Below, piece after piece: positions 21,676-39,799 of a stretch of DNA of 64,000 bases. This DNA is from Candidatus Latescibacterota bacterium (GTDB lineage Bacteria > Latescibacterota > UBA2968 > GCA-2709665). The notes under the pieces were generated by a model. The model saw only the letters and a program-made list of their open reading frames with translations. It was not told the origin of the DNA and did no database searches. The translations under genes were made by a program, and so were the position numbers. The stretch is taken from contig OZ244937.1 in assembly GCA_965222075.1 (NCBI GenBank), forward strand, positions 672,001 through 736,000, read 5' to 3'. Within the stretch, counting starts at the first letter, position 1. Each line of letters opens with the position of its first letter.

Positions 21676-22815
21676 ATGAGCGGTGCTTTTGGCAGGCGGC
21701 TGCGGGAGTTGAGGGCTGAACGTAAAATTTTACAGGGCGTTTTTGCGGAAAAGTGCCAGATTTCGTCGTCGTACCTGTCAGACATCGAACGGAGCAGGCG
21801 AAACCCCCCGGCGGATCAGGTGATTCTGGAGTGGGCGCGTTTCTTAGATCCGGGCAATGCAGAGGAGATCGGTGGGGAACTGGTCGACCTTGCAGCCCGT
21901 GACCGGAGGCGAGCAGAGGCCGTTACCGAGACAGAGGTCGAAGAGGCCGCTACGATCTGGGAAACATCCGGCGCACAGGGCGGCAGGGAAGACAAGCAGG
22001 CGGAAAAAAGCAGCAGGAAGAGCGAGACCCCCTTCCTCGACCATTTCGGCGTGGACATGGTCGCGCTTGCCCGCGAAGGCCGGCTGGACCCGGCGCCCGA
22101 GCGTTCCTGGGAGTTTGAAGAGGTGGCCTGCGCGCTTGCCTGCCGGAAATGCAACAGCGCTGTGTTGACATACGAAACGAATGCCGAGATTTATCGCGTG
22201 GTGCAGGGGCTGGCCTGCGAGATCGCCGATGGGCGAGCGCCGGAGCCGCCGGCGGGTAAGCGGCTGCTGACGCTGAACGGGGTGCAGGCGGGCGTCAAGT
22301 ACCGGGGTCAGTTCGAGGAACGGTTGAAGGCCCTGATCGACGAGACCGCGAAGATCAGGGATGTGGTGATGTACTTCCACAGTCTGGCGGACCTGGTGGA
22401 CCTGGAAGGGAATGCGAAAGGATCGTTCTTTCGTCCGGCGCTTCAGGAGGGCACGATCCAGGTGATTACGGGCGCTACGCCGGGAGAGATGGACTACGCC
22501 CGAAAGGTGAACCCAGGGCTTGCCGAATGTTTCAGGACGGTGCCAATCCGGCCGCTGGATCGTGATGGCGTCTTAAGAGGGTTGTACGGGGTGCGCGACA
22601 GATATGGCAGTCATCACGGTGTGACGTATTCCGAAGAGGCGCTGGTTGCCGTTGTGGATACCGCTGAAGCGGACGGTGAGGTCGAATTCTGGCAGCGGGC
22701 GCTCGATCTGCTCGACGAGGTAGGCGCACGTCTACGTCTGAAGGGAGACAGGAGGGAGGTCACGATGGAGGATGTGGACCGGGCAACCACAGGGACTACG
22801 CGAACAGTTCCCTGA
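21676..22815 (+). CDS. XRE-family HTH fused to a degenerate ClpA/B/C first AAA module
   Basis: FGRRLRELR...SYLSDIER HTH; TPFLDHFG...AREGRLDP, AGVKYRGQFEERLK, ITGAT, RDRYGSHHGV and ALDLLDE match Clp D1; Walker A/B eroded; AGGAGG RBS. Confidence 0.85.
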   Translation: MSGAFGRRLRELRAERKILQGVFAEKCQISSSYLSDIERSRRNPPADQVILEWARFLDPGNAEEIGGELVDLAARDRRRAEAVTETEVEEAATIWETSGAQGGREDKQAEKSSRKSETPFLDHFGVDMVALAREGRLDPAPERSWEFEEVACALACRKCNSAVLTYETNAEIYRVVQGLACEIADGRAPEPPAGKRLLTLNGVQAGVKYRGQFEERLKALIDETAKIRDVVMYFHSLADLVDLEGNAKGSFFRPALQEGTIQVITGATPGEMDYARKVNPGLAECFRTVPIRPLDRDGVLRGLYGVRDRYGSHHGVTYSEEALVAVVDTAEADGEVEFWQRALDLLDEVGARLRLKGDRREVTMEDVDRATTGTTRTVP

Positions 22816-25823: not shown

Positions 25824-25862
25824 GCATAAAGGGTAGCCCCACCGCTGGGCTACCCTTTATGC
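25824..25862. repeat. Perfect 16-bp-arm inverted repeat at the toxin 3' end
   Basis: gcataaagggtagccc-caccgct-gggctaccctttatgc. Confidence 0.8.
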
Positions 25863-26248
25863 TGGGTAACCATTGGCTCTTGACACGATGGCGACTCTGT
25901 ATCTATGGGTCTGACGATTGCATAGATTCCCTGTAGTACTTCGTTGAATCGGGCGCGACTTAAAACCCCGATTCGACCGTCGAGCATCGAACGGTCTACG
26001 GTTGCGATCTGAGAGATATTGACGACGCAGCTCCCTGAAAGGCCCGCTTCGCCTTTTGAGAGCGTCACATTGCCGAATGCCCGACCGAGCCGCAAATTGC
26101 CGGTGATGGCTACAACAACGACCGTTGAGATTCTGCTGGCGTTAAACGCGTTGTTCTGAATGATCACACAGGGACGCCGATAAGGGGGCTCCGATCCCTT
26201 TGGGACGCCGAAATCAACCCAGTGGACTTCGCCCTGTGAGATTACTAT
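25850..26248 (-). pseudogene. mazF: MazF/PemK toxin whose start codon reads ATA
   Basis: (ATA)VISQGEVHWVDFGVPKGSEPPYRRPCVIIQNNAFN...VVVAIT...VVNISQI. Confidence 0.8.
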
Positions 26249-26490
26249 TCCTCTTTCCCCGCCAGGTCCCGAAAGTGAGACAGAGCAGCGCGTCTGAAAG
26301 CGACATCGTCGGGCGTATCTCCTTCTCCGTGCACCTGGTTCAGGTTCGCAACAATGGCCTTTGCGGATTGTTTTTCGATATAAGCCCTTGCCGCCCTCTG
26401 GAAAAATTCGCTGCGTGATATGTTGGCGGTTTTGAGGAATATTTCGATGCTCTCATTGAGGGCATCGGGAATCGAGATTGCCGTTTTCAT
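26245..26490 (-). CDS. Ribbon-helix-helix antitoxin (MazE/ChpI-like)
   Basis: MKTAISIPD...SRSEFFQRA; directly upstream of the MazF-like toxin. Confidence 0.85.
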   Translation of the reverse strand: MKTAISIPDALNESIEIFLKTANISRSEFFQRAARAYIEKQSAKAIVANLNQVHGEGDTPDDVAFRRAALSHFRDLAGKEE

Positions 26491-27973: not shown

Positions 27974-28183
27974 TTACTGGGCGTTAGCGTGGTCAGTCGT
28001 TATCACAATTTCCGAGTGTTTGGTTGCCTGACGGTAAGAATCAAGCCCCTTATCCGCCTTCTGGTAATTTTGGTAAACCTGCATAACTTCGCGGACACCC
28101 GGGCGGGCCAGCGCCTCCTTTAGCATGGCGGCATGTTCTTGCTCACGGTTGGAACTTTGAGGCTTTGCTGTGTGTTTGGGCAT
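27974..28183 (-). CDS. Hypothetical small protein
   Basis: 69-aa ORF with AGGAGA RBS; no recognisable motif. Confidence 0.5.
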   Translation of the reverse strand: MPKHTAKPQSSNREQEHAAMLKEALARPGVREVMQVYQNYQKADKGLDSYRQATKHSEIVITTDHANAQ

Positions 28184-28199
28184 GGGGAGTCTCCTGTTG

Positions 28200-28337
28200 G
28201 GTTAGTAGTCTCGCTGCGTGAACGTTGGGATCTGCCTCGCTTGGATCACTTTCTTTGGCCCAGCGCATGTCGTGGCCGACTCTGCGCAGACGAGCGACGG
28301 TGTGCTCCGACATATTTTCGTCGTCCAGTATTTTCAC
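28200..28337 (-). pseudogene. N-terminal fragment of a DUF5615 PIN-like toxin
   Basis: MKILDDENMSEHTVARLRRVGHDM...DP resembles the MKFLADEN...LR.AGHDV pattern, then breaks off. Confidence 0.6.
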
Positions 28338-28492: not shown

Positions 28493-30421
28493 TCATCTGG
28501 CATTAAACGCCATCAAAGCTGCGTCGGCTCTACCGCAGGAAACCCATAGCTCAGGCACGGCATGACAAAGCCACTTCAGGGACGAGCAGAACACCTGCCC
28601 TTCCTCATCTTTCAAATCGCCGAATGCGAATTCCGTAAGCCAGTCACCGACAAATTCTGTCCATTCGCTCAGGTCCGAACGGCTTGCAGCGGCTACGAGG
28701 CAAATCGTTATGACCTCCTGTATAGACAACGCATACTCAGCATCGTGCCTGTATCTACGTACAAGGATTCGCAATTCGTCCGCAAGCGTGGGACTCCTTG
28801 TAACGGCGGCAACCGTAGCTAACCCATTCAATATAGTAACAAGCTGCGATCTGTTCTCTATGTTTTGAAGTCGATGGCTGGCACGCATCAGCGCTTTTGC
28901 CGCTAATTCAGCCTGGTCTGCACTAATGGGAAAAATCAAGGCGAAATTCACAAGAGCAATAAACGATGATGGCCCTACTTCGTTTGCGCGGAGCTGTGTC
29001 TCAATCGCTTCTGCGACTTCGGGAGGCAAATTGCGATGCGTACCTTCGGTTCCCTCTAATGGTCCAGGTAACCATGGGCCAGGGGAAACCACCAAGAGAC
29101 TGAAGACTTCTGGCATCATCTCCGAATACCAGGTCATATATATGGCTACCCGCTATATTCTGCTCGTAGTCCTTAGCTGAGATCATGATGCGACCGAAGA
29201 ATTCAGCCTTCATTTGTGAAGCCACTGCAAGATCGGGATCCCAGTGCGGCTCCAAACGCATATCGGCGAGCGATTGCATGCAATATTGCTCTATACGACT
29301 GCTAAACGCCCATTTACTGAATTGATCAATATCAATAGCTGAATTCACAAACTGACGATGAATCAATGTGGCCTGTGACAAGGCTGCCAATCTCCTGTAG
29401 AAAGGAGGCTCCTTCCGAAACAACTGGATTCTTGATAACTCTCCATCCACAAGACAGAACAATGCCGAGAGAAGCTTGAAACCGCTCGTTTGTCCATCAA
29501 CGTCGTCGTCTCGAATCTGCTCAATGAGACGAATAAGTGCCTGCTCTATCTCAGGTCGTGACGGAAGAACGCGAAAGCCGACTTCAATGGCCCCCAACTG
29601 CGAGATTCTGTCTCCATGTTTTTCCAAAAAATTGTAGGCTCTTACAAGGTCTTCACGACTCAAATGGTCAACATTGATTTCGTCCGTTAGCGAAGAATGT
29701 GATGACAGAAGAGGCTAAACATAAAGCCATCATAGGATCGCCACGCAGCCAGTTGATCAAAGAGCGCTCTGCCGTTACCAGAGGCATAATCGCGAATGGA
29801 GGCACTTCCGTCATATTCGCCTACAAGTCTTTCAAAATATCTACGTGAAGGAGGAACCAGAGAGGATATACTACCTTGTCTGCCTATAATCTCACTGCGT
29901 ATGGTTCGTGTCTTTGCGACTGGCGTATCGTGAAACTCACTGTGAAACGCATCGACTTCGTCATCTTCGAGAGCACGTTCCGCAAGAATATTGCGCCATG
30001 GGTCTGATGCACTGTTGGGTAGATTGACGTCGGAAGCGGCTTCATCAAAGGAACGCAGACGTGTATCTCTATCTGGGGAAAGTGCCGCAAAAGTAGACGG
30101 GAGAAGATGCTGTTCATCGCAAGAAAGTGAAAGACGCGGCAGTTCTCCTTCTCCGCTGATGTTCTTTATTTTCCACTTTTGTCCCTTCGTGTCAGTCACT
30201 TCCTGTATTGATGCGCCTGCAAGAACCTTTCGAATAGCATGACACAGACTGGAACATTGAACTAAAATATCAAAATCACGAAAGGTAAGAATAGGATCCG
30301 CCGTAAAACCGTATTCCTCCCGAAAATCCGAATCCTCAAGCAAAGTCTCACGTATAAGGGGAGGCACAAAATTCAAAGCTGCCTGCGCCAATGCAGATCT
30401 GACATCAAGACTATTCGTCAT
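28493..30421 (-). CDS. Uncharacterised ~642-aa helical protein with two single-base frameshifts; partner of the HNH-TPR-PIN gene
   Basis: ORFs 29687..30421, 29001..29663 and 28493..29137 join with a -1 indel near 29708 and a +1 indel near 29077; ATGA overlap with the upstream gene. Confidence 0.7.
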
Positions 30422-33400
30422 TTATCCTCCCTCTCCATCATATCCATACCAACCACGTCTACAATTCGTCTTCGATACCATTCGACCAGATCAAGATACA
30501 AATCGGGATTTTGTTCCTTGAGCGGAGCCAAAACTCTCTCGTCGACCCACCTCCAGTATTCGTCCTTGACTTCTTGGGGCTCTTTGATCGGGGGTACGAG
30601 CATTGATAGGATATTTGTACCACGTCCAGTTTTGACCATGTTCTCTCCATCTTCTTTTCCAAGACTGTGCGCCCAGCCGCGAACGTCAATCAGGTTCAAA
30701 ATCCAGTCAGAGCGTACCCGCGCACTCGCAACGTCAACATCGGCCCTCCACAAGCCTGCCAGCACTCGGCTGAACACTTGTAGCAACGTCTCTAACCAAG
30801 GAGTTTCTTTCGGACGCTGAAGCCAAGTACTCATCCGAACCTGAAGGATGTTTTCTCGTATAGCCTTCAGTTCGGCCGTCTCAACAAACTTGCCGTCCTC
30901 GACCACAGAGGCATCAAGATAATGTGTCAGTTCATCCTCGCTTACTGGTACAAAGAAATATCCGGCCTGGCGAAGTCGAGTCCTGTACTCCAGCCGTTCT
31001 TCGGCCGTTTTAGTACCCGTGGAGACCAGTGCATCGATAAGATCCAACGTTGAAAATATCGGCGCATGTGCGTCGCCATCAACGATATTGGCATGTTGGT
31101 TGAGGTATCTGTCATCCAAAATGATTGCATCACAATGCCTTGCCAAGAAGGAAACACCAGCGGTCGGGTGTTCATATATTAGCTGCTCTTTTGATTGACT
31201 AACGTTGATGCGCTTGCTTACCTTTACTTTTCCTGACTCTATCCGCGAATTGACGGCAGACCGTATGCGTTCTATGGCGTCCTCAACCTTGCCAGAAACA
31301 CCTGCGTAAGAAATGAGTAGATTTATTTCAGATTCCGTTCTTGGCGAAATAATCGGTCTGAAGCCAGCGGCTCGGAGTTTTCCCAGTATCCCAAGATGAA
31401 GGAAACGGTATACAGCCAAGTCATCCAGGTACAGTACCGCCCCATCAGCAATCTGCGGCTGATCTGGCCACGACTTCTCGTGAAGTTGAAAATAGGCTCG
31501 CGCCTTCTCTACTTCGTTCGCCGTAATCTGGCCCTTCTTCCGCAACTTGTCCACAATAGATTGACAACTACTCAGCACGGTTGCATGCGCTGTTAAGTCA
31601 GCTTCTTCTTCCATCAGAGAAGCGACCCGATGAACCGGAGACGACTGAACAACAATGCGCTGTGAATCGTCTTCGTTTCTCACCTTTTCCGCCTCCGCTA
31701 TAAACAGCGCCAACTCATCCCCAACCTGATCGGATAGATCACTATCCGGTACAGTGCTTGGCGAGAGTTCTTCTAACGCACCTGTGGCCAGCAAATGCCT
31801 CACCTCATGCGCATCTTTAATCCGGCTTGGCTGATGAAATGCAACCCTCTGTTTTTCCTCAAAAAGCCAACTAAGAGTTGAATGTGGTATGTGGACTGTA
31901 CCAAAAGCGTCCAATGCCTCATCAAGCACATTCAGAAAGCTCAAGGTGAGTAATGCGGTTGCATCCATTCCAACCTGCCCACTGGTATTGAGGCGTGTCG
32001 GCTGTCGTTGACCGCTATATGCGGGAACAACGTCTCTGCGTCTCGGATCGCTCTCCGACAGGTTCGCCCAAGCACGGAGAAACATCAAATCGCAAAGTGA
32101 CGTGTTGAAGGCTTGAGCTGCAAGAAACATCGGAAGCTCGCCACGGGTCAACCGCTGCGATATTTCAGAGGTTCGTTGATCCCACTCCGGTTTCCGGTCC
32201 AAAAGATCCCTCAGTGTCATCTTTCCGATTGGACCATCATCGCCAGAGATTGTGGCGGCTTTGTGCATCCACTGAGAGACTTCCTTGTCCTCCCAACCGG
32301 CTTTTGTTGCAAGAAAGTAGGCTGTTCCTAATACATCAGCATCGTCTTTTCCTTTCTCTACCGCTGCAAATATCAACTCTTTTGCATGGGAGATAGAATC
32401 CAAACCAACGGCCAATTGAGCTGTCCCTATCAATTCCTGAGCGTTTCTCTTGTCTTTTTTCTTGCATTCGTTAGCTACAAACGCAGAAACGGAGTTCCAG
32501 TCACCCAAAGAGATTCCAAGATTGATCTGTAGTGTGCGGTAGTTCGGGTCATCCCAATCATCACCCAGTTCCGCCAATTTGGAGCGAGCCTCCAGTAGCG
32601 CACCTTCATGGTACAAAGACAAGCAATGCAGCTGTTGGAGTTGCTTGGATTGTTCCAAAAGCGTCTTGTTCGATTCCAGAAATTCTGCAAGTGGTTCATA
32701 TTCCTGTGTATTGTGTAAAGCGGTTGCCAACCGCTCCCCATCGCTCAGCGCGTGGGTTCTTTCAAACAGAATTCTACCATACTCGCTAAGGCTGTCCCAG
32801 TCGTCTCTAATTTCGAGTTCGTGAACAAGGATTTCCAAATCATGCAGTGAATCTGTCTCTCTGAACTGTTCCTTACGAGCCTCAACCGGATTAGTCCCCT
32901 CTGCTTCGGCAATGATTCCCCGAAGTCGGCGTTCCTGCCCCTCAGAAAGTCCGTCTTCCAAAAGAATATCCAAGCACTTTTTGGCCTGCTCAAGCTGCCC
33001 GGCCCGCGCAAACAACTCGATTTGGACAAACTGCATATATTTTTTGTCAATGTGTTCGGCAAGCGTGTCGTGGTGCCGGGCGATATAATTCGCAGCAGCC
33101 CCTGGGGTCTTTTGGACGAAAACCAGAGCAAAGCGAGCACTTGCGGTGTCAGCAGTATTTCCGCCGTTCAGGGCAATTTGTCGTTCGATTTCCTGTTCAA
33201 CTACCGCCGTATCCAATTTTATTCCGAATTGAAGGCCGAGACGAACAAGATGTAGAGCGGTCTTGGCATCGCGAAGTTTGGATTCCAGTCGCATTCTTCC
33301 TTCGGCACATTTATCAGAATCCGTGAGTTCAAGCCAAAGTGCATACTCATCATCTATTTTTTCTGCAAGGGGACAGTCTAATTTACGTGCAACCTTTGCA

Positions 33401-34516
33401 GCGTCGATAAAGTTACGATGTGCAGCTCGGCGGGCTTCAAGTGCAGCTAAGTCTGAGGCAAGAGGGAAGTTTACGACATCGAAAGGTGGTTGGTTAAGCA
33501 CACCAGAGCGAAGTTCGTCAGGTACCGCTCTTAGGAGGTGTGTTACTGCCACCATGTGATGGAGGACAGGGGCATCGCGCAGATCGTCATCAGTCAGCAC
33601 ATCAAGGCTTTTCTGCGCTGCCTCCCAATCGGCGAGTTCAAACTGACGCGCCAATAGGAAGCATTTGCCGTCGGGGTCCAGGTTTGTAGCGTCAATACCA
33701 GCCTTTTTCAACCAGTCAACAGCTTCTTGTGGGCCGTCATGATGTGTAACGACCATAAGCGCCGCAGATCGGGATACCGGTGAATCAATGCCAGCCAGAG
33801 TGCTCAGAGCAGCCTCCTTATCATCCTTCCGCGAAGATATGAAGGCTGCCGCAATCTCGATTTCCGGGCAAGTTCCCAATTCATTGGCACATGCGAAGAA
33901 CGATTCTGCTTTGTATAAATCGCCATCTGCCAGCAATCGTACGCACCAGGCTAATGCTTTGCTCCTTACCACATCAGTGCCACCCGAGAGTTTTCCTTCT
34001 ATCAGTTTTCTCGCGAGTGCTAATGAAGAGTCGACCCTATCGAACTCTCCGAAAAAGCGAGATTTACGGAGTATATCGGTCTCATCCTTAATTTTTTGAT
34101 CAACGAGTTCCGTTGGGAAATCAGAACGAGAAGACACATTCGACAAAACACTACCTAAGCCTGCGGAGAGCCGATTCTCTATCACTTTAGCTTCATGCTC
34201 CTGCTTCCACTGCTTGAGCATTTCGGCCGGATAAGTTTCAGGTTGACCATCCACCACGTACATGGTGAGTCGGACAAAGTAAGATCAGATTCTCTGGAGA
34301 ATTCAGTTCTTCATTGGTGAGTCCGACTTTTCCTCTTGGGCCATCGACATTAATAGCATAAATGTGGCATATTTGAGTAACGACATGAGCATCGGACTGT
34401 TCAGTCGCTGCTTCAATAACAGTGTTCTCACATTCTGGATGCGCGCATTGATTTCCGCTCAGACCGAACAGGACTTTCAATGTCTTCTGTGAATAATTTC
34501 GTTTAGATGTTTTCAT
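30418..34516 (-). CDS. HNH endonuclease-TPR-like-tandem PIN-like protein (about 1365 aa, one +1 frameshift near 34258)
   Basis: SGNQCAHPEC...ICHI...NLILLCPTHH joins VVDGQPETY; long helical repeats; MDATALLTL, LDDLAV and LDDRYL PIN-like acidic motifs. Confidence 0.75.
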
Positions 34517-34562: not shown

Positions 34563-34597
34563 TGTTGCCTGTCTGCCGGCGAGGCAGGCAGGCAACA
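34563..34597. repeat. CCTGCC/GGCAGG palindromic element
   Basis: tgttgcctgtctgcc-ggcga-ggcaggcaggcaaca; related copies at 39996 and 59306. Confidence 0.7.
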
Positions 34598-34698
34598 CCG
34601 TCTCCACATCCCCGGCCGCCAGGGCGTTCATGTAGGCCAGGATCAGGTCGTGGGTGCAGTAGCGCCCGAATGCATCGACCTTCGGCGACGATGGGATC
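34598..34698 (-). repeat. Diverged duplicate of the 3' end of the type IIG RM gene
   Basis: Encodes AFGRYCTHDLILAYMNALAAGDVETV versus AFGRYHTRDLILAYMSALAAGDTETE at 35716-35791. Confidence 0.9.
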
Positions 34699-35185
34699 AC
34701 GTCGTCTCGCCGGCACGTTCTAACACCCTCTGGCGAGTCTTGGCGTTCAGCCGAAACCGCAGGGCTTGGAGACGATCCAAAACGGGCCGAATCGCGTCGA
34801 GAACGCCTCGCTCCTTGGCCCGCAACAAGAGGCCGAGGGTGCCTGAGACCTCCAACTCCAGTGCCCGGGCATACCGCCGTGCGTCTCGATCATCAAGGAG
34901 GAGCAGCGCGTCCTGTGTTTCCAGTCCCAGGGCGAGCACTTCCTTCTCGCCATCCCCAAGATGCGTCACCAGAGGGAGCAGCGTCGGATCGCGCACCGGC
35001 CGCACGATCAGCCACGAAAGCTCCTCCAGAGCAGGCAGGCGTACATTTCGCCGTCGACCCTCTCGTAACTCCGCCGCCACCGCTTCCGGGACGTACACTT
35101 GTCCGACGAGTGCGGGCAGAAGTTCCAACACGTCGGCCTGGTGCAGGTACTGGAGAGGAGAAGTATTACAGATGACGTCGGGCAC
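34697..35185 (-). CDS. DUF3368 PIN-domain toxin
   Basis: ICNTSPL, VPEAVAAE, LGDGEKE, LLDDRDAR, GTLGLL. Confidence 0.9.
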   Translation of the reverse strand: MPDVICNTSPLQYLHQADVLELLPALVGQVYVPEAVAAELREGRRRNVRLPALEELSWLIVRPVRDPTLLPLVTHLGDGEKEVLALGLETQDALLLLDDRDARRYARALELEVSGTLGLLLRAKERGVLDAIRPVLDRLQALRFRLNAKTRQRVLERAGETT

Positions 35186-35432
35186 TGGCCAGATCCTGTT
35201 GGAGGTCTTCCTCGGTCAGGTGGAAGGCATCAACACCGTAGTCAGCTAATTTTATTAGAAACAATGGCTTGGGAATGTCAGCCAGCTTGGCTGCCGCCCC
35301 CGAGGACAACCGTCCCAACTCGTAGAGCTTGACGGCGACGAGGATCTTGGCCTCTTCGCTGAACTGCCTGGGTGAATATCCCAGGGCCAGCAGGACCTCA
35401 TCGCCGTAGTCAATGGTCAACGTTCTCTTCAT
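35166..35432 (-). CDS. UPF0175 family antitoxin
   Basis: AVKLYELGRLSSGAAAKLA...FL..LADYGV; overlaps the DUF3368 gene. Confidence 0.9.
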   Translation of the reverse strand: MKRTLTIDYGDEVLLALGYSPRQFSEEAKILVAVKLYELGRLSSGAAAKLADIPKPLFLIKLADYGVDAFHLTEEDLQQDLASARRHL

Positions 35433-35701: not shown

Positions 35702-38700
35702 TCACACCGCCACCTCCGTCTCCGTATCCCCCGCCGCAAGGGCGCTCATGTAGGCCAGGATCAGGTCGCGGGTGTGGTAGCGGCCGAAGGCGGCCTTGTC
35801 TCCGCGGCGGACAATCGGGAAGGTGTCCAGCACGTAGCCCGCGTCGTCCCGGCTCAGACCGTAGAGGTGGAAGTAGAGCGCGTCGAGGCGGGCACGGAGG
35901 TGGCGGCGTTCTTCTTCGTCCCACACGAAAGGCGGGCCCTCACAGCCCAGGTCGCGGGCGAAGGGCGCCATGTCGTGCGCGGTGTAGGTGAGGCGTAGCA
36001 CATGGTCGCGGACGAGGTCGCGGGCGGTCGTCGTGCCGAATGAGCGGTCGTAGTCGGCGGATGCGATGACAGGGAGTTGCTCGACTGTGTACCAGGTGAG
36101 ATGAGTACCCTGGAATTTTGTGGCGTGTCACATAATCGAAGCAATGGCTGTTGAGATTCGCAACAACGAGGCAAGCGTCGGCTGCGGAAAAATCGTCCTC
36201 CGGCATCAAAATGAAGACGCTGTCACTCAACCCGACTTTTGGCACGGCGGCTGCAATCATGGTCCTAACATCTGTTGGACGTGCTATACGCCTATACGCA
36301 ATCGTCCAGCCAAGCCTGTCGGGCATATTGTGACTTACTTCCTGCTCCAGAACCCAGTATTGTGTCATAGGGCTAAATGCTGGATTGGCGTGTTCGGCGA
36401 CAGTTACAGCCACGCTCAGATACGGATTTATAGTGTTGTCTGGATTGTATTTTACCGAATTGGCCCGATGGTCGAACTGACGAATCATCCGGCCCTGGTA
36501 CAGCGGCAAATACAGCTCCTCGCCCCGTCTCCAGCGATTGCCCTGCACCGGGTAGAAACCTTCGGCATCGAGCTGCGCGGCGGTGCGGAAGAGGTGGGAG
36601 TCATTGGCCATGTGGAACATGGTGTTGTACCGAATCGGCCAGGCGCGGCGCTCCTCACCCCTTGAGCGGTCCACCAGCACCGGATGCCGCTCGTAGATGC
36701 GACGGGTGATCTCGGCGTCCCGTTGGCTGCGGAAAACGGGCGCGGTGCCGGTGTTGGGGTTCACGCGGGCGAAGTCCACCGGCGTCAATGGAAAGCAGCG
36801 GTCCTTGTCATGGATCGTTTTCGTGTCGTGCAGGAAGAAGGCGCATTCGGTCTGATCGAACAGTCGCTCCTCTCCGCCGAATATGAGGGCGCAGAATTTG
36901 AACGAAGCATGAACGTCCTTGAAGAAAATTTTCTTGTTCTCAAAATCAAACAGGCCGCCCACCCGTCCACTTGTGGAAACGGACTTGAAGAACCGGGCCG
37001 CGGTCTTGTCCGCGTAAATGCCCGACGGCGTCAGCAGGCCGACAAAACCATCCGGCTTGATCAGGTTCATGGCCCGCTCGACGAACAGCGAGTACAGGTT
37101 GACGTCGCCACCGCCCAACAGGGGATAGTGCTCAGATGCGCGAACCAGTTGGCTGAGTTTGTCAGCGCGTGTCTTGGCCGCGTCGAACTCGGCCGCAAGG
37201 GGCGCTCCTTTGTCACGCAACCGCTGAATGCCTGTTCGCCGCGCAGCCGCCGTGGGCGCGAGAGCGAGCTCGGGGTCACGCGTTGCAAACCACTCCACCT
37301 CCTGCAGCTTGATGCGGTCCCACGGCGGGTTGCCGATGACCGCGTCAAAGCCGCCTTGCGGGCGGCTGTTTTGCCACTGCCGCCACACCCCCGGAAAAGC
37401 CACCTCCCAGTGCAGGAAGCCTTCCCGATTGGCAATGGTTCGCGCCCCGCGCCACAGCTCGGCAAACTGCGCCCAGGTGGTGGCATCGGAATCGGGAGCC
37501 TCGTCGCCCAGATGCACCGGCCCTCGCGCCAGAAGCTGGTACGCCTTCGCCGACTGCCGCCCGAGCGTCGTGACCAGCGGTCCCTCAAAGGCCGCGCGCT
37601 CTTTCTTCTTCATGCCCGCGGTCAGCCAACGCCAGCCGCAGAGGGTGTCGAGCAGACCGCGGAGGTCCGCAGTCGTCTCCTCCACCCCGTGAAACAGCGC
37701 CGCCGATTCGTGCACCTCGGCCACGTCGGCGTCGGACATCTCCTCGATGCGCTGCATCCCTTCGGTGGCGGCCTCCGCCCCGGCAATGGCGCTACTGGCA
37801 AAGAACCCGCCGAGCCGATTCAATTCATCCGTGGCATCCTTTACCCGCAGGCCGACCAGCGAGTCGCCGCAGCGCAGGTGGTGGTCCAGGAAGGACAACG
37901 GCGCGCCCACCGTGAAGCTGTGCAGCCACAGTGACACCTTGGCCAATTCGACCGTCAGGGGATTCTTGTCCACCCCGTAAATGCACCGTTTGAGCACCAT
38001 GCGGCGGATAATGGCCTGGTCGCTAAGCTGGGCCTCGTCCAGCACCCAGTTCGATTCCTCAGCCCGTCGGATGATCTCACGGCGAATCGTTGCCACGCGC
38101 CCCACCAGCGGCGACACGTAACCGTCATCCAGCCACTCCGGGACCGCAGGGACGTATTCGATCAACTCGGCAATATAGTCGGACAGGAAATCCACCGCGG
38201 TAACCAGGAAATGGCCGCTTCCCATCGCCGGGTCCAGCACCTTCAGGTCCAGGACGGCCTCGGCCGGGTCGAGCCGCTCAAGCTCAGCCTGTCGTTCCGA
38301 CCTGGGCCGGCGGTCGCTCTTGAGCGCGGCGGCCTTGTCCTCGAAAGCTTTGAGACGCTCTTCGGCCAGCGGCTTCAGGGTGCGGTCAACGATCAGATCG
38401 ACGAGTTCCTGAGAGGTATAGAAACTGCCGCTGTCCTTGCGGGCGTAGGGATTGGGACGGACGGCGATCTTGCCGTCGTCGTCACGCACCGGCTCGCGCT
38501 CCAATAGCCGCTCGTAGATCGAGCCGAGTTGCTGCACCGACATGTCGCGGTAATTGACAAAGCGGTGCTTTCCCTGTGGATCTCTGGCGTGGCTCAGATC
38601 GTAGATGATAGGCGCGATTTTGGCGTCGGCCAGGCGGACCGATTCCAGCAATGGAGCGGCTTCAGACGCAAACAGCCCCCCGTTGTAGGGCGGGAGGCCA

Positions 38701-39740
38701 ATGGACGGATCGCCCTTGTCGATCATTTTGAAAAGATTGACAAGGCGGTCGTAGTAGTTGGTGGCAATGGCCGAGTAGGTATCCCCGACCGCCATCCTGC
38801 CCGCAATATCGTCGCGCACCCGCTTGCGCAACCCGTAGTCGTCGTAACGCGAATCGTTGACGGGCAGCAGGCCCCTGTCCTCCGCGTAAAGCACGAAAAG
38901 CAGGCGATAGAGGAAGATCAACGCTGCCTTGTGGACCTCCGGGAGGCGTGCCTCCGAGGCTTCCGCAAGAGCCTGGACAAAATCCGGGAAAACACGCTCG
39001 AACACCACCTCCGAAAGATCCTGCGCAACCTCTTCCTCATAGCGCCGCCCCTCGGCCAGCGCGGCTTCCAGGAATGTGGTCGTGGCGCCCTGTTGACGTG
39101 CAAAGGACTCGCGGCGAAACAGCAGATGAAAAACGCGGAGGTCCTCTTCCCTACCGGGCTTGAACAGTTCAACCAGGTCGGCTTCAAAGTAGCCGCTGGC
39201 GCGGGGCCGGGCGCGGTAATCGTAGAGACGCCAAACCCTGCCATTGGTCAGAATACCCCAGCGAATGCGGCTCTCCGACTCGATATCGGCCGTTGAGAGG
39301 TACCTGAGAATCTGGCCGTGCGGCGTCCTGGCCTGGACTTTGTCGTCCTTGTCGCGGTCGTTCAGAGATAGACCGAAGCGCTTGCTTTCTTCGACGACCG
39401 CCGCGTAGCGGAAGCGGTCGCCGACGTTGTGTTCCGCGGCGGCGCGCTGTTTGGAGTCGGCATCGGCGAAAAGCAGATGGTCGGGAATATCCTCTTTGCG
39501 CGCTGTGCCCTGCTGAGGCAGGTAGTCGGCCCATCCCAGCAACTCCAGAACCGGCCGGATGAGTTCCTGCTCGGTAACCGCCTCGTTGGGGTCTGCGGAA
39601 CGGCTGAGGGCGTCGTAACGCTGACGAACGCGGTCCCTGAATGCGCCAAACGCCTCCGGGTCCGAGACCGAGGATTTCCACTCGTCGGTGGCTTTTATGC
39701 CATCTGTGAGGAAATAATGGGTGAGTAATTGGCCGGACAT
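35702..39740 (-). CDS. Type IIG (Eco57I-like) fused restriction endonuclease-N6-adenine methyltransferase, +1 frameshift near 36112
   Basis: IPD...EESK and WGILTNGRVWRLY nuclease region; YNGGLF, LGSIYERLL, GSFYT, LDPAMGSGHFL and GNPPW MTase motifs; continues QGTHLTWYTVEQLPV...LYFHLYGL in a shifted frame. Confidence 0.9.
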
Positions 39741-39799
39741 TTTGAAGAAATTGTTTTTCCTGTGGCTTTCTCGCCATGTGATTCCCATATTATACCATC

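Follow-up and report, generated by a model that had tools for sequence, protein, structure and literature searches.

A frame-broken two-gene cassette in a Latescibacterota genome as a candidate two-subunit variant of the predicted TPR-GreA/B-C-PIN counter-invader family

We analyzed a 64,000-nucleotide stretch of contig OZ244937.1 (positions 672,001 to 736,000; assembly GCA_965222075.1) from a Candidatus Latescibacterota bacterium, hereafter the window, which carries on its minus strand a cassette of two genes, A and B, broken into five open reading frames (ORFs; Table 1). Judged by the curated domain models that its products match, the locus is a two-subunit form of the predicted TPR-GreA/B-C-PIN (TGP) family, a structural variant rather than the archetype, and a two-subunit TGP counter-invader system, with the mechanism set out below, is in our view the likely best explanation of the cassette. 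This reading builds on direct observation of the domains, the linkage of A and B, their fusions, the modularity of the N-terminus of A, and the defense-island setting. An interpretation made earlier from the DNA letters alone (the sequence-only reading) had taken the locus for an uncharacterized anti-phage system. Its functional guess, a system of the defense type, survives, whereas the claim of novelty fails: the core domains are curated Pfam families of TPR-GreAB-C-PIN (PF20698, 48.2 bits; PF24407, 81.6 bits; PF24388, 32.9 bits), and the system they match was already named in the main text of Kaur, Iyer, Burroughs, and Aravind (eLife 2021; PMC8195603). Curators, moreover, already know the variant, as the family names chosen in Pfam (“Permuted GreAB-C” and “HTH upstream of double PIN”) show.

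Domains and pairing of the two gene products

Once three single-base indels are read through, the five minus-strand ORFs are two translationally coupled genes, with reconstructed products of approximately 1,366 amino acids (aa) for A and approximately 640 aa for B. The frames of the ORFs, expressed as the end coordinate modulo 3, are 1 and 0 in gene A and 1, 2, and 1 in gene B, and the three gene B fragments are colinear on the intact 642-aa homologue from locus L004, where they cover residues 1–233, 255–450, and 450–639 with 67% to 76% identity. The sequence-only reading had already joined the five ORFs in this way; its coordinates are exact, and the breaks are now placed by intact homologues. 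Two further observations of that reading were confirmed, namely the ATGA overlap of 4 nucleotides (nt) between the genes, which is preceded by a strong Shine-Dalgarno stretch, GGAGAGGGAGGA, and the low GC content of the cassette (0.45–0.53 in 300-base windows vs ~0.55–0.68, about 0.60, on both flanks). A regulatory scan revealed no excess of promoter-like sites (5 vs 5.6 expected from shuffling) and a single terminator-like site, which lies within gene A.

The first fragment of gene A encodes an HNH domain related to that of Cap5. It matches HNH_2 (PF13391) above the Pfam cut-off (E = 2.3e-6, 27.8 bits) and, in the PADLOC library, the PDC-M68A profile (7.8e-27) as well as HNH effector profiles of the cyclic oligonucleotide-based antiphage signaling system (CBASS), whereas the gene A family profile, compared with solved structures, retrieves PDB entry 9om4 (1.3e-14) and Cap5 (7rwm; 1e-6). 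The threonine in the “CPTHH” stretch of the window, where a metagenomic homologue (P0004) has asparagine, was considered as a loss of the catalytic asparagine and rejected: the position is variable in the family consensus, and the conserved asparagine of the motif lies upstream and is kept. The second fragment continues with a helical region of about 640 aa, for which an ESM Atlas search returned no score above 0.84, followed by the HTH domain PF24407, which scores above its Pfam cut-off and was found in 32/32 gene A homologues, and two PIN domains. PF20698 (PIN-TPR-GreABC) is matched in two stretches within residues 945–1059 (1.7e-12, 48.2 bits vs a cut-off of 27.8) and likewise recurs in all 32 homologues. 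In the predicted fold of A residues 680–1281 (predicted local distance difference test [pLDDT] 85.3), the best structural matches are PIN domains, and the homologue alignment shows candidate catalytic acids that are invariant or nearly so in both of them; a Foldseek search of the PDB with the C-terminal model of A yielded nothing at E ≤ 0.001. The Cap5-like HNH and the two PIN-like segments discerned from the letters alone are thus borne out, the former by Pfam, PADLOC, and structure matches and the latter by the two Pfam stretches and by fold.

Gene B, in which the sequence-only reading had recognized no motif, does contain one, since the permuted GreA/B-C model PF24388 scores above its cut-off in the window; the same model matches 34/36 gene B homologues. 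The structural model of an intact B homologue (pLDDT 90.5, predicted template modeling score 0.89) comprises a small beta domain at residues 44–107 followed by an all-helical solenoid. The solenoid gives generic repeat matches only and dominates fold searches with the whole protein; Foldseek found no match to the B model in the PDB at E ≤ 0.001, and the B family profile, compared with solved structures, gave only a chance match (E = 0.46). NCBIfam holds no family for any fragment of A or B.

To describe the pairing of the two genes, we used 77 A-seeded loci from species-representative genomes, of which 65 were assessable in that they contain the end of A and at least 1.9 kb downstream of it; among the remaining 12 is L075, in which A is truncated with no B after it. 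B follows A on the same strand in every one of these 65 loci, being fused to it in a single ORF in 13, located within 200 nt in 51, and separated by a 1.8-kb insert in 1. In the reciprocal survey, seeded with B, the gene was immediately preceded by the end of A in 77/77 assessable loci out of 80. The co-occurrence check proposed with the sequence-only reading therefore has a uniform answer, and A and B are obligate partners. Fusions of approximately 2,010 aa also account for 7 of the 120 A matches listed, by our own count of the table.

Modeling of the tail of A together with B, based on the L004 homologue, is consistent with a physical complex. The score reached 0.75 (median of 3 runs) compared with 0.00 for the best of 3 controls, and the mark for this score, which is attained by 58/80 solved complexes and 2/110 mismatched pairs, applies only roughly here, our own alignments having been used. 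At least 69% of contacts were common to the runs, and the pLDDT of the partner was at least 84. Because no like complex was found among solved structures in the family profile searches, model memory is an unlikely source of this result. In the model, B uses its first and last helices to clamp the helical domain at the C-terminus of A, the predicted contact on that side being with the C-terminal helices.

The N-terminus of A is a swappable slot. Pfam analysis of 32 A homologues identified HNH at the N-terminus in 16, TIR in 3, and SMEK_N in 1. Across 70 loci with a readable A N-terminus, 31 carry HNH, 8 a DUF676-type esterase, and approximately 21 a short 30-residue motif, with single cases of metallophosphatase, Mrr nuclease, and SMEK_N and several that are unassigned; the 120 A matches listed include, again by our own table count, approximately 20 with HNH, approximately 19 with TIR, and 1 with SMEK_N. 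Swapping of the N-terminal effector among homologues, which the sequence-only reading had anticipated, is hence observed, with HNH, TIR, esterase, phosphoesterase, Mrr, SMEK, or the short motif preceding the same core.

In 9 of the 21 short-motif relatives, a mini-ORF ends at the start of A (L019, L023, L024, L027, L038, L040, L044, L065, and L073; e.g., L073:4703-4945). It encodes approximately 70 aa (112 aa in L065) with a conserved NKEWLFSG stretch and one hydrophobic helix, and its C-terminal tail bears the same motif as the N-terminus of A, with local alignment scores of 46–70 in these 9 loci vs 17–26 in the other 12. From these sequences, the arrangement looks like the amyloid-relay layout of the Bab/Agp system (described below) with a much smaller effector. 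No small motif-bearing ORF was found upstream of gene A of the window, either in the ORF listing or in the upstream sequence.

Relationship to known systems and proposed mechanism

As presented in the main text of Kaur et al., the TGP system was predicted from a constant core of TPR, GreA/B-C, and PIN combined with 13 alternative N-terminal effectors, including HNH and TIR (PMC8195603). The archetype is a single, “mostly standalone” protein with the order TPR, GreA/B-C, PIN; its GreA/B-C domain is proposed to dock on RNA polymerase at the secondary channel, by way of the beta-prime coiled coil, and its PIN domain to cleave the extruded transcript of a hijacked polymerase, with the N-terminal effector serving as a suicide back-up (PMC8195603). 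Experimental support comes from the preprint by Ibarlosa et al., whose main text reports that the TGP protein Agp and its small companion Bab confer abortive-infection protection against T5 on E. coli and that point mutants of the Agp GreA/B-C domain mimicking GreA-RNA polymerase contact mutants lose T5 defense (bioRxiv 10.1101/2024.11.07.622273).

Set against that description of TGP, the pair in the window shares the PIN family PF20698, a GreA/B-C-type domain as called by its Pfam model, a long helical region of putative repeats, and interchangeable N-terminal effectors, including HNH and TIR, and, as in TGP, the core evolves rapidly and has spread horizontally. It departs from the published archetype in its order (TPR-like region, HTH, PIN, PIN on A, with the GreA/B-C-type domain on B) and in that this domain is circularly permuted, going by its Pfam model, and belongs to an obligately linked second protein with an alpha-solenoid of approximately 530 aa; where relatives of the pair are fused, in the same 13/65 loci, the order is A then B, unlike in the single-chain form. 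The PIN family, the GreA/B-C-type domain in the core, and the swapped N-terminal slot that define TGP are all found at the locus, whereas the single-chain order is not. The two-gene, double-PIN, permuted-GreA/B-C form is undescribed in the main text of the two papers found (Kaur 2021, whose source-data files may list it, and the Bab/Agp preprint), and the PIN systems treated in the portion of the DefensePredictor paper available to us are other ones (PMC13092281).

The other comparisons are more distant. Bab/Agp of E. coli ECOR25, as far as the main text of the preprint describes it, resembles the cassette in that Agp is a TGP protein, its GreA/B-C domain is needed, and the effector is coupled via the N-terminus of the TGP protein, a feature paralleled by the short-motif relatives with a mini-ORF (9/21). 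By contrast, where Agp has an amyloid relay motif, A of the window has an HNH enzyme fused to it, and no Bab-like gene accompanies the cassette. Agp is one chain of 1,094 aa that lacks a separate B, and the mini-ORF products, with their single hydrophobic helix, differ from the 109-aa Bell-domain Bab. The HNH of the window is of the same subtype as that of CBASS Cap5 (SAVED-HNH), with PADLOC CBASS effector profiles matching down to 3.4e-16 and structural matches to 7rwm, 7rwk, and 8fm1, but where Cap5 has a nucleotide sensor, it adjoins a core made up of the TPR-like region and the PIN domains. Pfam scans revealed no SAVED or cyclase family in A, B, the homologues, or 20 neighboring ORFs, which rules out a CBASS identity. 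The best PADLOC match of the HNH fragment is protein A of the candidate system PDC-M68; only positions 3–119 of the 253-position profile are matched, however, and the rest of A and B match no PADLOC family. Finally, unlike in VapBC-like type II toxin–antitoxin (TA) modules, the PIN domains sit inside a protein of approximately 1,366 aa, and the partner is a 640-aa protein that can be fused to it.

Where it concerns polymerase binding, the molecules that are cut, and the sequence of steps, the mechanism we propose is extrapolated from Kaur 2021 and Bab/Agp. Subunit A would consist, in order, of a Cap5-like HNH DNase, the long helical (TPR-like) region, the HTH, two PIN nuclease domains, and the C-terminal helical domain, and subunit B of a circularly permuted GreA/B-C-type beta domain followed by the alpha-solenoid that would hold A. 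Through the GreA/B-C module of B, the complex would dock on RNA polymerase at its secondary channel. Once transcription is hijacked or altered by a phage, the transcript would be cut by the PIN domains of A, and the N-terminal HNH would then be released as a DNA-degrading abortive-infection effector. A broader picture, which we put forward tentatively and as no better than possible, is that of a two-piece surveillance machine for RNA polymerase, in which the permuted GreA/B-C and solenoid subunit would clamp the tail of the TPR-HTH-double-PIN subunit and report the state of the transcribing polymerase, while the N-terminus of A would act as a universal output socket, fitted in some members with an enzyme (HNH in the window; TIR, esterase, phosphoesterase, or Mrr in others) and in the rest with a self-templating relay motif of 30 residues held in common with a 70-aa single-helix membrane protein. 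If this were true, the separate polymerase-docking polypeptide would make the RNA polymerase-sensing hypothesis of TGP immunity directly testable by subunit mixing. TGP is one of few proposed bacterial immune sensors of the host’s own RNA polymerase, with experimental support so far from one single-protein member, as given in the main text of the preprint; the two-subunit form is widespread, and its putative polymerase-docking module is physically apart from the nucleases, so the sensing step should be easier to dissect.

Several results weigh against this mechanism, and some of them favor a different trigger within the same family. Polymerase binding by the two-gene form is something we infer from relatives, and the GreA/B-C-type assignment of the beta domain of B derives from the curated Pfam model and its name; an hhalign comparison of the B family with the C-domain of GreA from this genome found no similarity (probability 0.1). 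In the long helical region labeled TPR-like, TPR_19 matches only 1/32 homologues, and a PDB TPR protein matches at no better than E = 0.012. Neither the core of A nor B is represented by a model in PADLOC-DB 2.0, so the defense role is contextual. Long repeat scaffolds are typical ligand sensors. The beta domain of B might not bind RNA polymerase, with a phage protein instead being recognized directly by the solenoid of B or the TPR-like region of A, in the manner of Avs/STAND or CapRel-type sensors, which would release the PIN and HNH nucleases. We consider this unlikely, given that the Pfam permuted GreA/B-C model scores above cut-off both in the window and in nearly all homologues and that, according to the preprint text, Agp mutations mimicking GreA-RNA polymerase contact mutants abolish defense. 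Much less probable still is that the cassette has no immune function and is a TA or addiction module in which B neutralizes the nucleases of A, or a housekeeping factor for transcript surveillance. PIN and HNH are, to be sure, common toxin domains, A and B are tightly coupled through the 4-nt overlap, and the neighbors are TA pairs, but A-B fusion at a fifth of loci (13/65) is ill-suited to a labile antitoxin, and a slot that accepts TIR, HNH, or a relay motif accompanied by a mini membrane protein is a hallmark of conflict systems. A patchy, low-GC, island-borne distribution speaks against a housekeeping role, and the relative Bab/Agp, in the account of its preprint, defends against phage. 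A two-subunit TGP system remains our preferred reading of the cassette.

Reality of the three frame breaks

The break in gene A lies in the region of the HNH motif, at the junction of the first two ORFs. P0004, a public metagenome protein with 98% identity, is uninterrupted across it, and the PADLOC profile PDC-M68A spans it, with profile positions 3–83 on fragment 1 and 84–119 on fragment 2. We checked the alleles at all three breaks by aligning on the locus the Logan contigs of four public runs (X1, X2, X5, and X8) from four studies, bearing in mind that rare variants are lost in contigs. At break 1, the extra base is absent from X1 (9.13/9.13 depth), and X2 shows a net change of −1 (17.4/17.4), with X5 and X8 lacking useful coverage. 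At break 2, one base is added in X1 (7.49/7.49), X5 (7.1/7.1), X8 (8.47/8.47), and X2 (24.1/41). At break 3, all four runs have one base fewer (21/21, 33.2/33.2, 9.64/9.64, and 9.9/9.9). Every contig indel seen at the three sites is frame-restoring, and this at full depth at all covered sites except break 2 in X2. None of the sequencing runs listed for the locus is an RNA data set, which bears neither way on expression.

On balance, we regard it as fairly probable that the three frameshifts arose as errors in the consensus of a strain-mixed region, or represent a rare allele there, and that the natural genes are intact; the frameshifts are probably window-specific, the breaks being absent from the natural population. 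The competing account, that the cassette is a genuine pseudogene in which three single-base indels, each of separate origin, recently disabled a previously working TGP-type system, strikes us as rather unlikely, yet it has several points in its favor, all of which count against intact genes. Three frameshifts fall within 6 kb, while other long genes of the window are whole (the 925-aa UPF0182 protein with full profile coverage, the 1,282-aa restriction–modification [RM] protein, and the 647-aa PGM), and a generally error-ridden assembly is unlikely because the marker completeness of the genome is 97.6%. No run contains more than 0.67 of the sequence words of the window, so its own strain may be unsampled, and in X2 the base added at break 2 accounts for 24.1 of 41 depth units, with the rest of the depth left unassigned. 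Inactivation is frequent among costly defense genes, and real decay probably does occur in this family, because several other loci are disrupted: gene A is in more than one piece at 6/65 assessable loci (L028, L035, L056, L064, L077, and L080), gene B is truncated in L015, in pieces in L078 and L080, and interrupted by an in-frame TAA in L032 (= L002), and gene A of the relative G002 contains a TAA as well. The contigs from four studies, which restore the frame at each covered site, argue against a pseudogene nonetheless, as does the lack of any other decay: gene B of the window retains 27/27 invariant and 58/60 near-invariant family columns, gene A retains all invariant columns, and in-frame stops are absent. 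Break 3 adjoins a homopolymer, and the strain mixture in the reads, strong at the locus (contigs of at least 99%, 95% to 99%, and 90% to 95% likeness occur in similar numbers), favors consensus errors. Programmed ribosomal frameshifting that regulates the system, to which the conserved pieces and otherwise open frames might point, has a negligible probability: there are three sites with mixed signs (+1, −1, +1), inspection of the sequence showed no slippery heptamer at any of them, and A and B are both unsplit at 56/65 assessable homologous loci. The frame-restoring indels in the reads at the same sites, together with the single-frame homologues, effectively refute it.

With intact natural genes as the favored reading, the corrections made in the sequence-only reading stand in so far as the breaks are indeed single-base indels; that they repaired a dead gene is improbable, the indels being probably specific to the window and not shown by the public reads. 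For annotation, the locus illustrates that five fragments can be one gene pair and that frameshifts are not proof of a dead locus before the reads are examined.

Among the disrupted relatives, gene B of L002 (= L032) has a single in-frame TAA at residue 310 (L002:6493), and gene A of G002 (C5:211215-215045) has one internal TAA; these stops may be real decay or assembly errors. Gene A spans 6.2–6.7 kb in L035 and L064, and the 1.8-kb insert between A and B noted above is that of L056; these large spans and the insert suggest mobile-element insertions into the cassette.

Table 1. Coordinates, strand, and basis of the features of the cassette and of its neighbors in the window.
Feature	Position	Strand	Basis
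Gene A and gene B cassette, whole	28493..34516	-	ORF listing; low GC
Gene A fragment 1, 92 aa, N-terminal HNH (Cap5-like)	34238..34516	-	PF13391, PADLOC PDC-M68A, PDB profile matches
Break 1, one extra base in the HNH motif region	34258	-	In-frame reading of P0004; contigs X1, X2
Gene A fragment 2, 1281 aa, helical (TPR-like) region, HTH, two PIN domains, C-terminal helical domain	30418..34263	-	PF24407, PF20698, homologues, fold
HTH, residues 684-753 of the 1281-aa ORF	32005..32214	-	PF24407 HTH_upst_double_PIN, 5.3e-23, 81.6 bits
First PIN-like domain, limits approximate, from model	31534..31977	-	Conserved acids D767, E803, E886/E887/D889
Second PIN domain	30898..31437	-	PF20698; conserved acids D947, E998, D1050/D1051, D1074
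C-terminal helical domain of A, where B is predicted to dock	30421..30897	-	All-helical in model; interface on equivalent L004 residues
A/B junction: Shine-Dalgarno stretch (30436-30425) and ATGA stop/start overlap (30421-30418)	30418..30436	-	Sequence, ORF coordinates
Gene B fragment 1, 244 aa, residues 1 to ~233 of ~640	29687..30421	-	67% identity to L004 B 1-233
Permuted GreA/B-C-type beta domain of B (by Pfam model), residues 56-100	30122..30256	-	PF24388 Permuted_GreAB-C, 5e-8, 32.9 bits vs cut-off 27
Break 2, one base missing	29706..29713	-	Three-frame reading vs homologues; contigs X1, X2, X5, X8
Gene B fragment 2, 220 aa, alpha-solenoid, residues ~255-450	29001..29663	-	76.5% identity to L004 B 255-450
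Break 3, one extra base adjoining a run of four C	29080..29082	-	Homologue comparison; contigs of all four runs
Gene B fragment 3, 214 aa, alpha-solenoid, residues ~450-640	28493..29137	-	75% identity to L004 B 450-639
MazE/MazF-like pair, intact	25850-26490	-	Library scans
UPF0175 antitoxin and DUF3368 PIN pair	34697-35432	-	DUF3368 vs PADLOC candidate PDC-S70, 2.6e-54
1,282-aa type IIG RM protein (Eco57I/MmeI/DrmMI-like)	35940-39788	-	DISARM DrmMI profiles, 6.2e-93

Genomic neighborhood and distribution of the family

The RM and TA neighbors mentioned in the sequence-only reading are present as a MazEF-like pair, a DUF3368/UPF0175 pair, and a type IIG RM gene, and a HARE-HTH/GIY-YIG protein is also part of the island around the cassette. 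The locus is accordingly, as that reading had it, a two-gene effector-sensor-nuclease cassette of the defense type situated between TA modules and the RM gene. The start of gene A is separated from the DUF3368/UPF0175 pair by a GC-rich inverted repeat, GTTGCCTGCC...GGCAGACAGGCAAC (34564-34596), which coincides with the drop in GC content and may be a terminator or the edge of an inserted cassette. Just downstream of gene B are two small minus-strand ORFs, 28143-28337, which has no PADLOC match, and 27974-28183, which has no Pfam match; the start of the former presumably resembles a DUF5615-type PIN-like protein before diverging, and this ORF may be a remnant of another TA module. Farther away, a plus-strand ORF of 379 aa (21676-22815) has an N-terminal Xre-type HTH and an AAA lid at its very end, with no ATPase core detected in the Pfam scan, and may be a truncated or unusual regulator.

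Of 8,000 candidates scored, 785 protein clusters match the core of A at E ≤ 1e-5, and the 120 matches listed are 62% to 98% identical. For B, 547 protein clusters match at E ≤ 1e-5 among those scored, nearly all of them approximately 640 aa long and unnamed. A search of the phage collection gave no match to A. Within 30 related genomes, substantial matches are confined to 1/18 of the same family and 2/12 of the sister family (62% to 64% identity); a fourth match, in G023, was discounted, as it covers 26 residues only at E = 4.2e-4. The two-gene form is spread over many phyla, and plasmids of culturable bacteria carry it too. That standard annotation would hide the system, as the sequence-only reading had predicted, holds even for intact copies, which RefSeq labels “hypothetical protein”; on the pAt plasmid of Agrobacterium fabrum, for instance, both members of an A and B pair bear this label, and their neighbors are VapBC, an integrase, and HsdR. 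A complete pair, 73% to 74% identical to a bacterial fused homologue (P0021), was recovered from a metagenome-assembled genome of Thorarchaeota (L007), and its presence on an archaeal-binned contig reflects either gene transfer or a binning error. On a Leptolyngbya plasmid (L088, 2640-9281), a 2,213-aa fused form is annotated as a “caspase family protein.”

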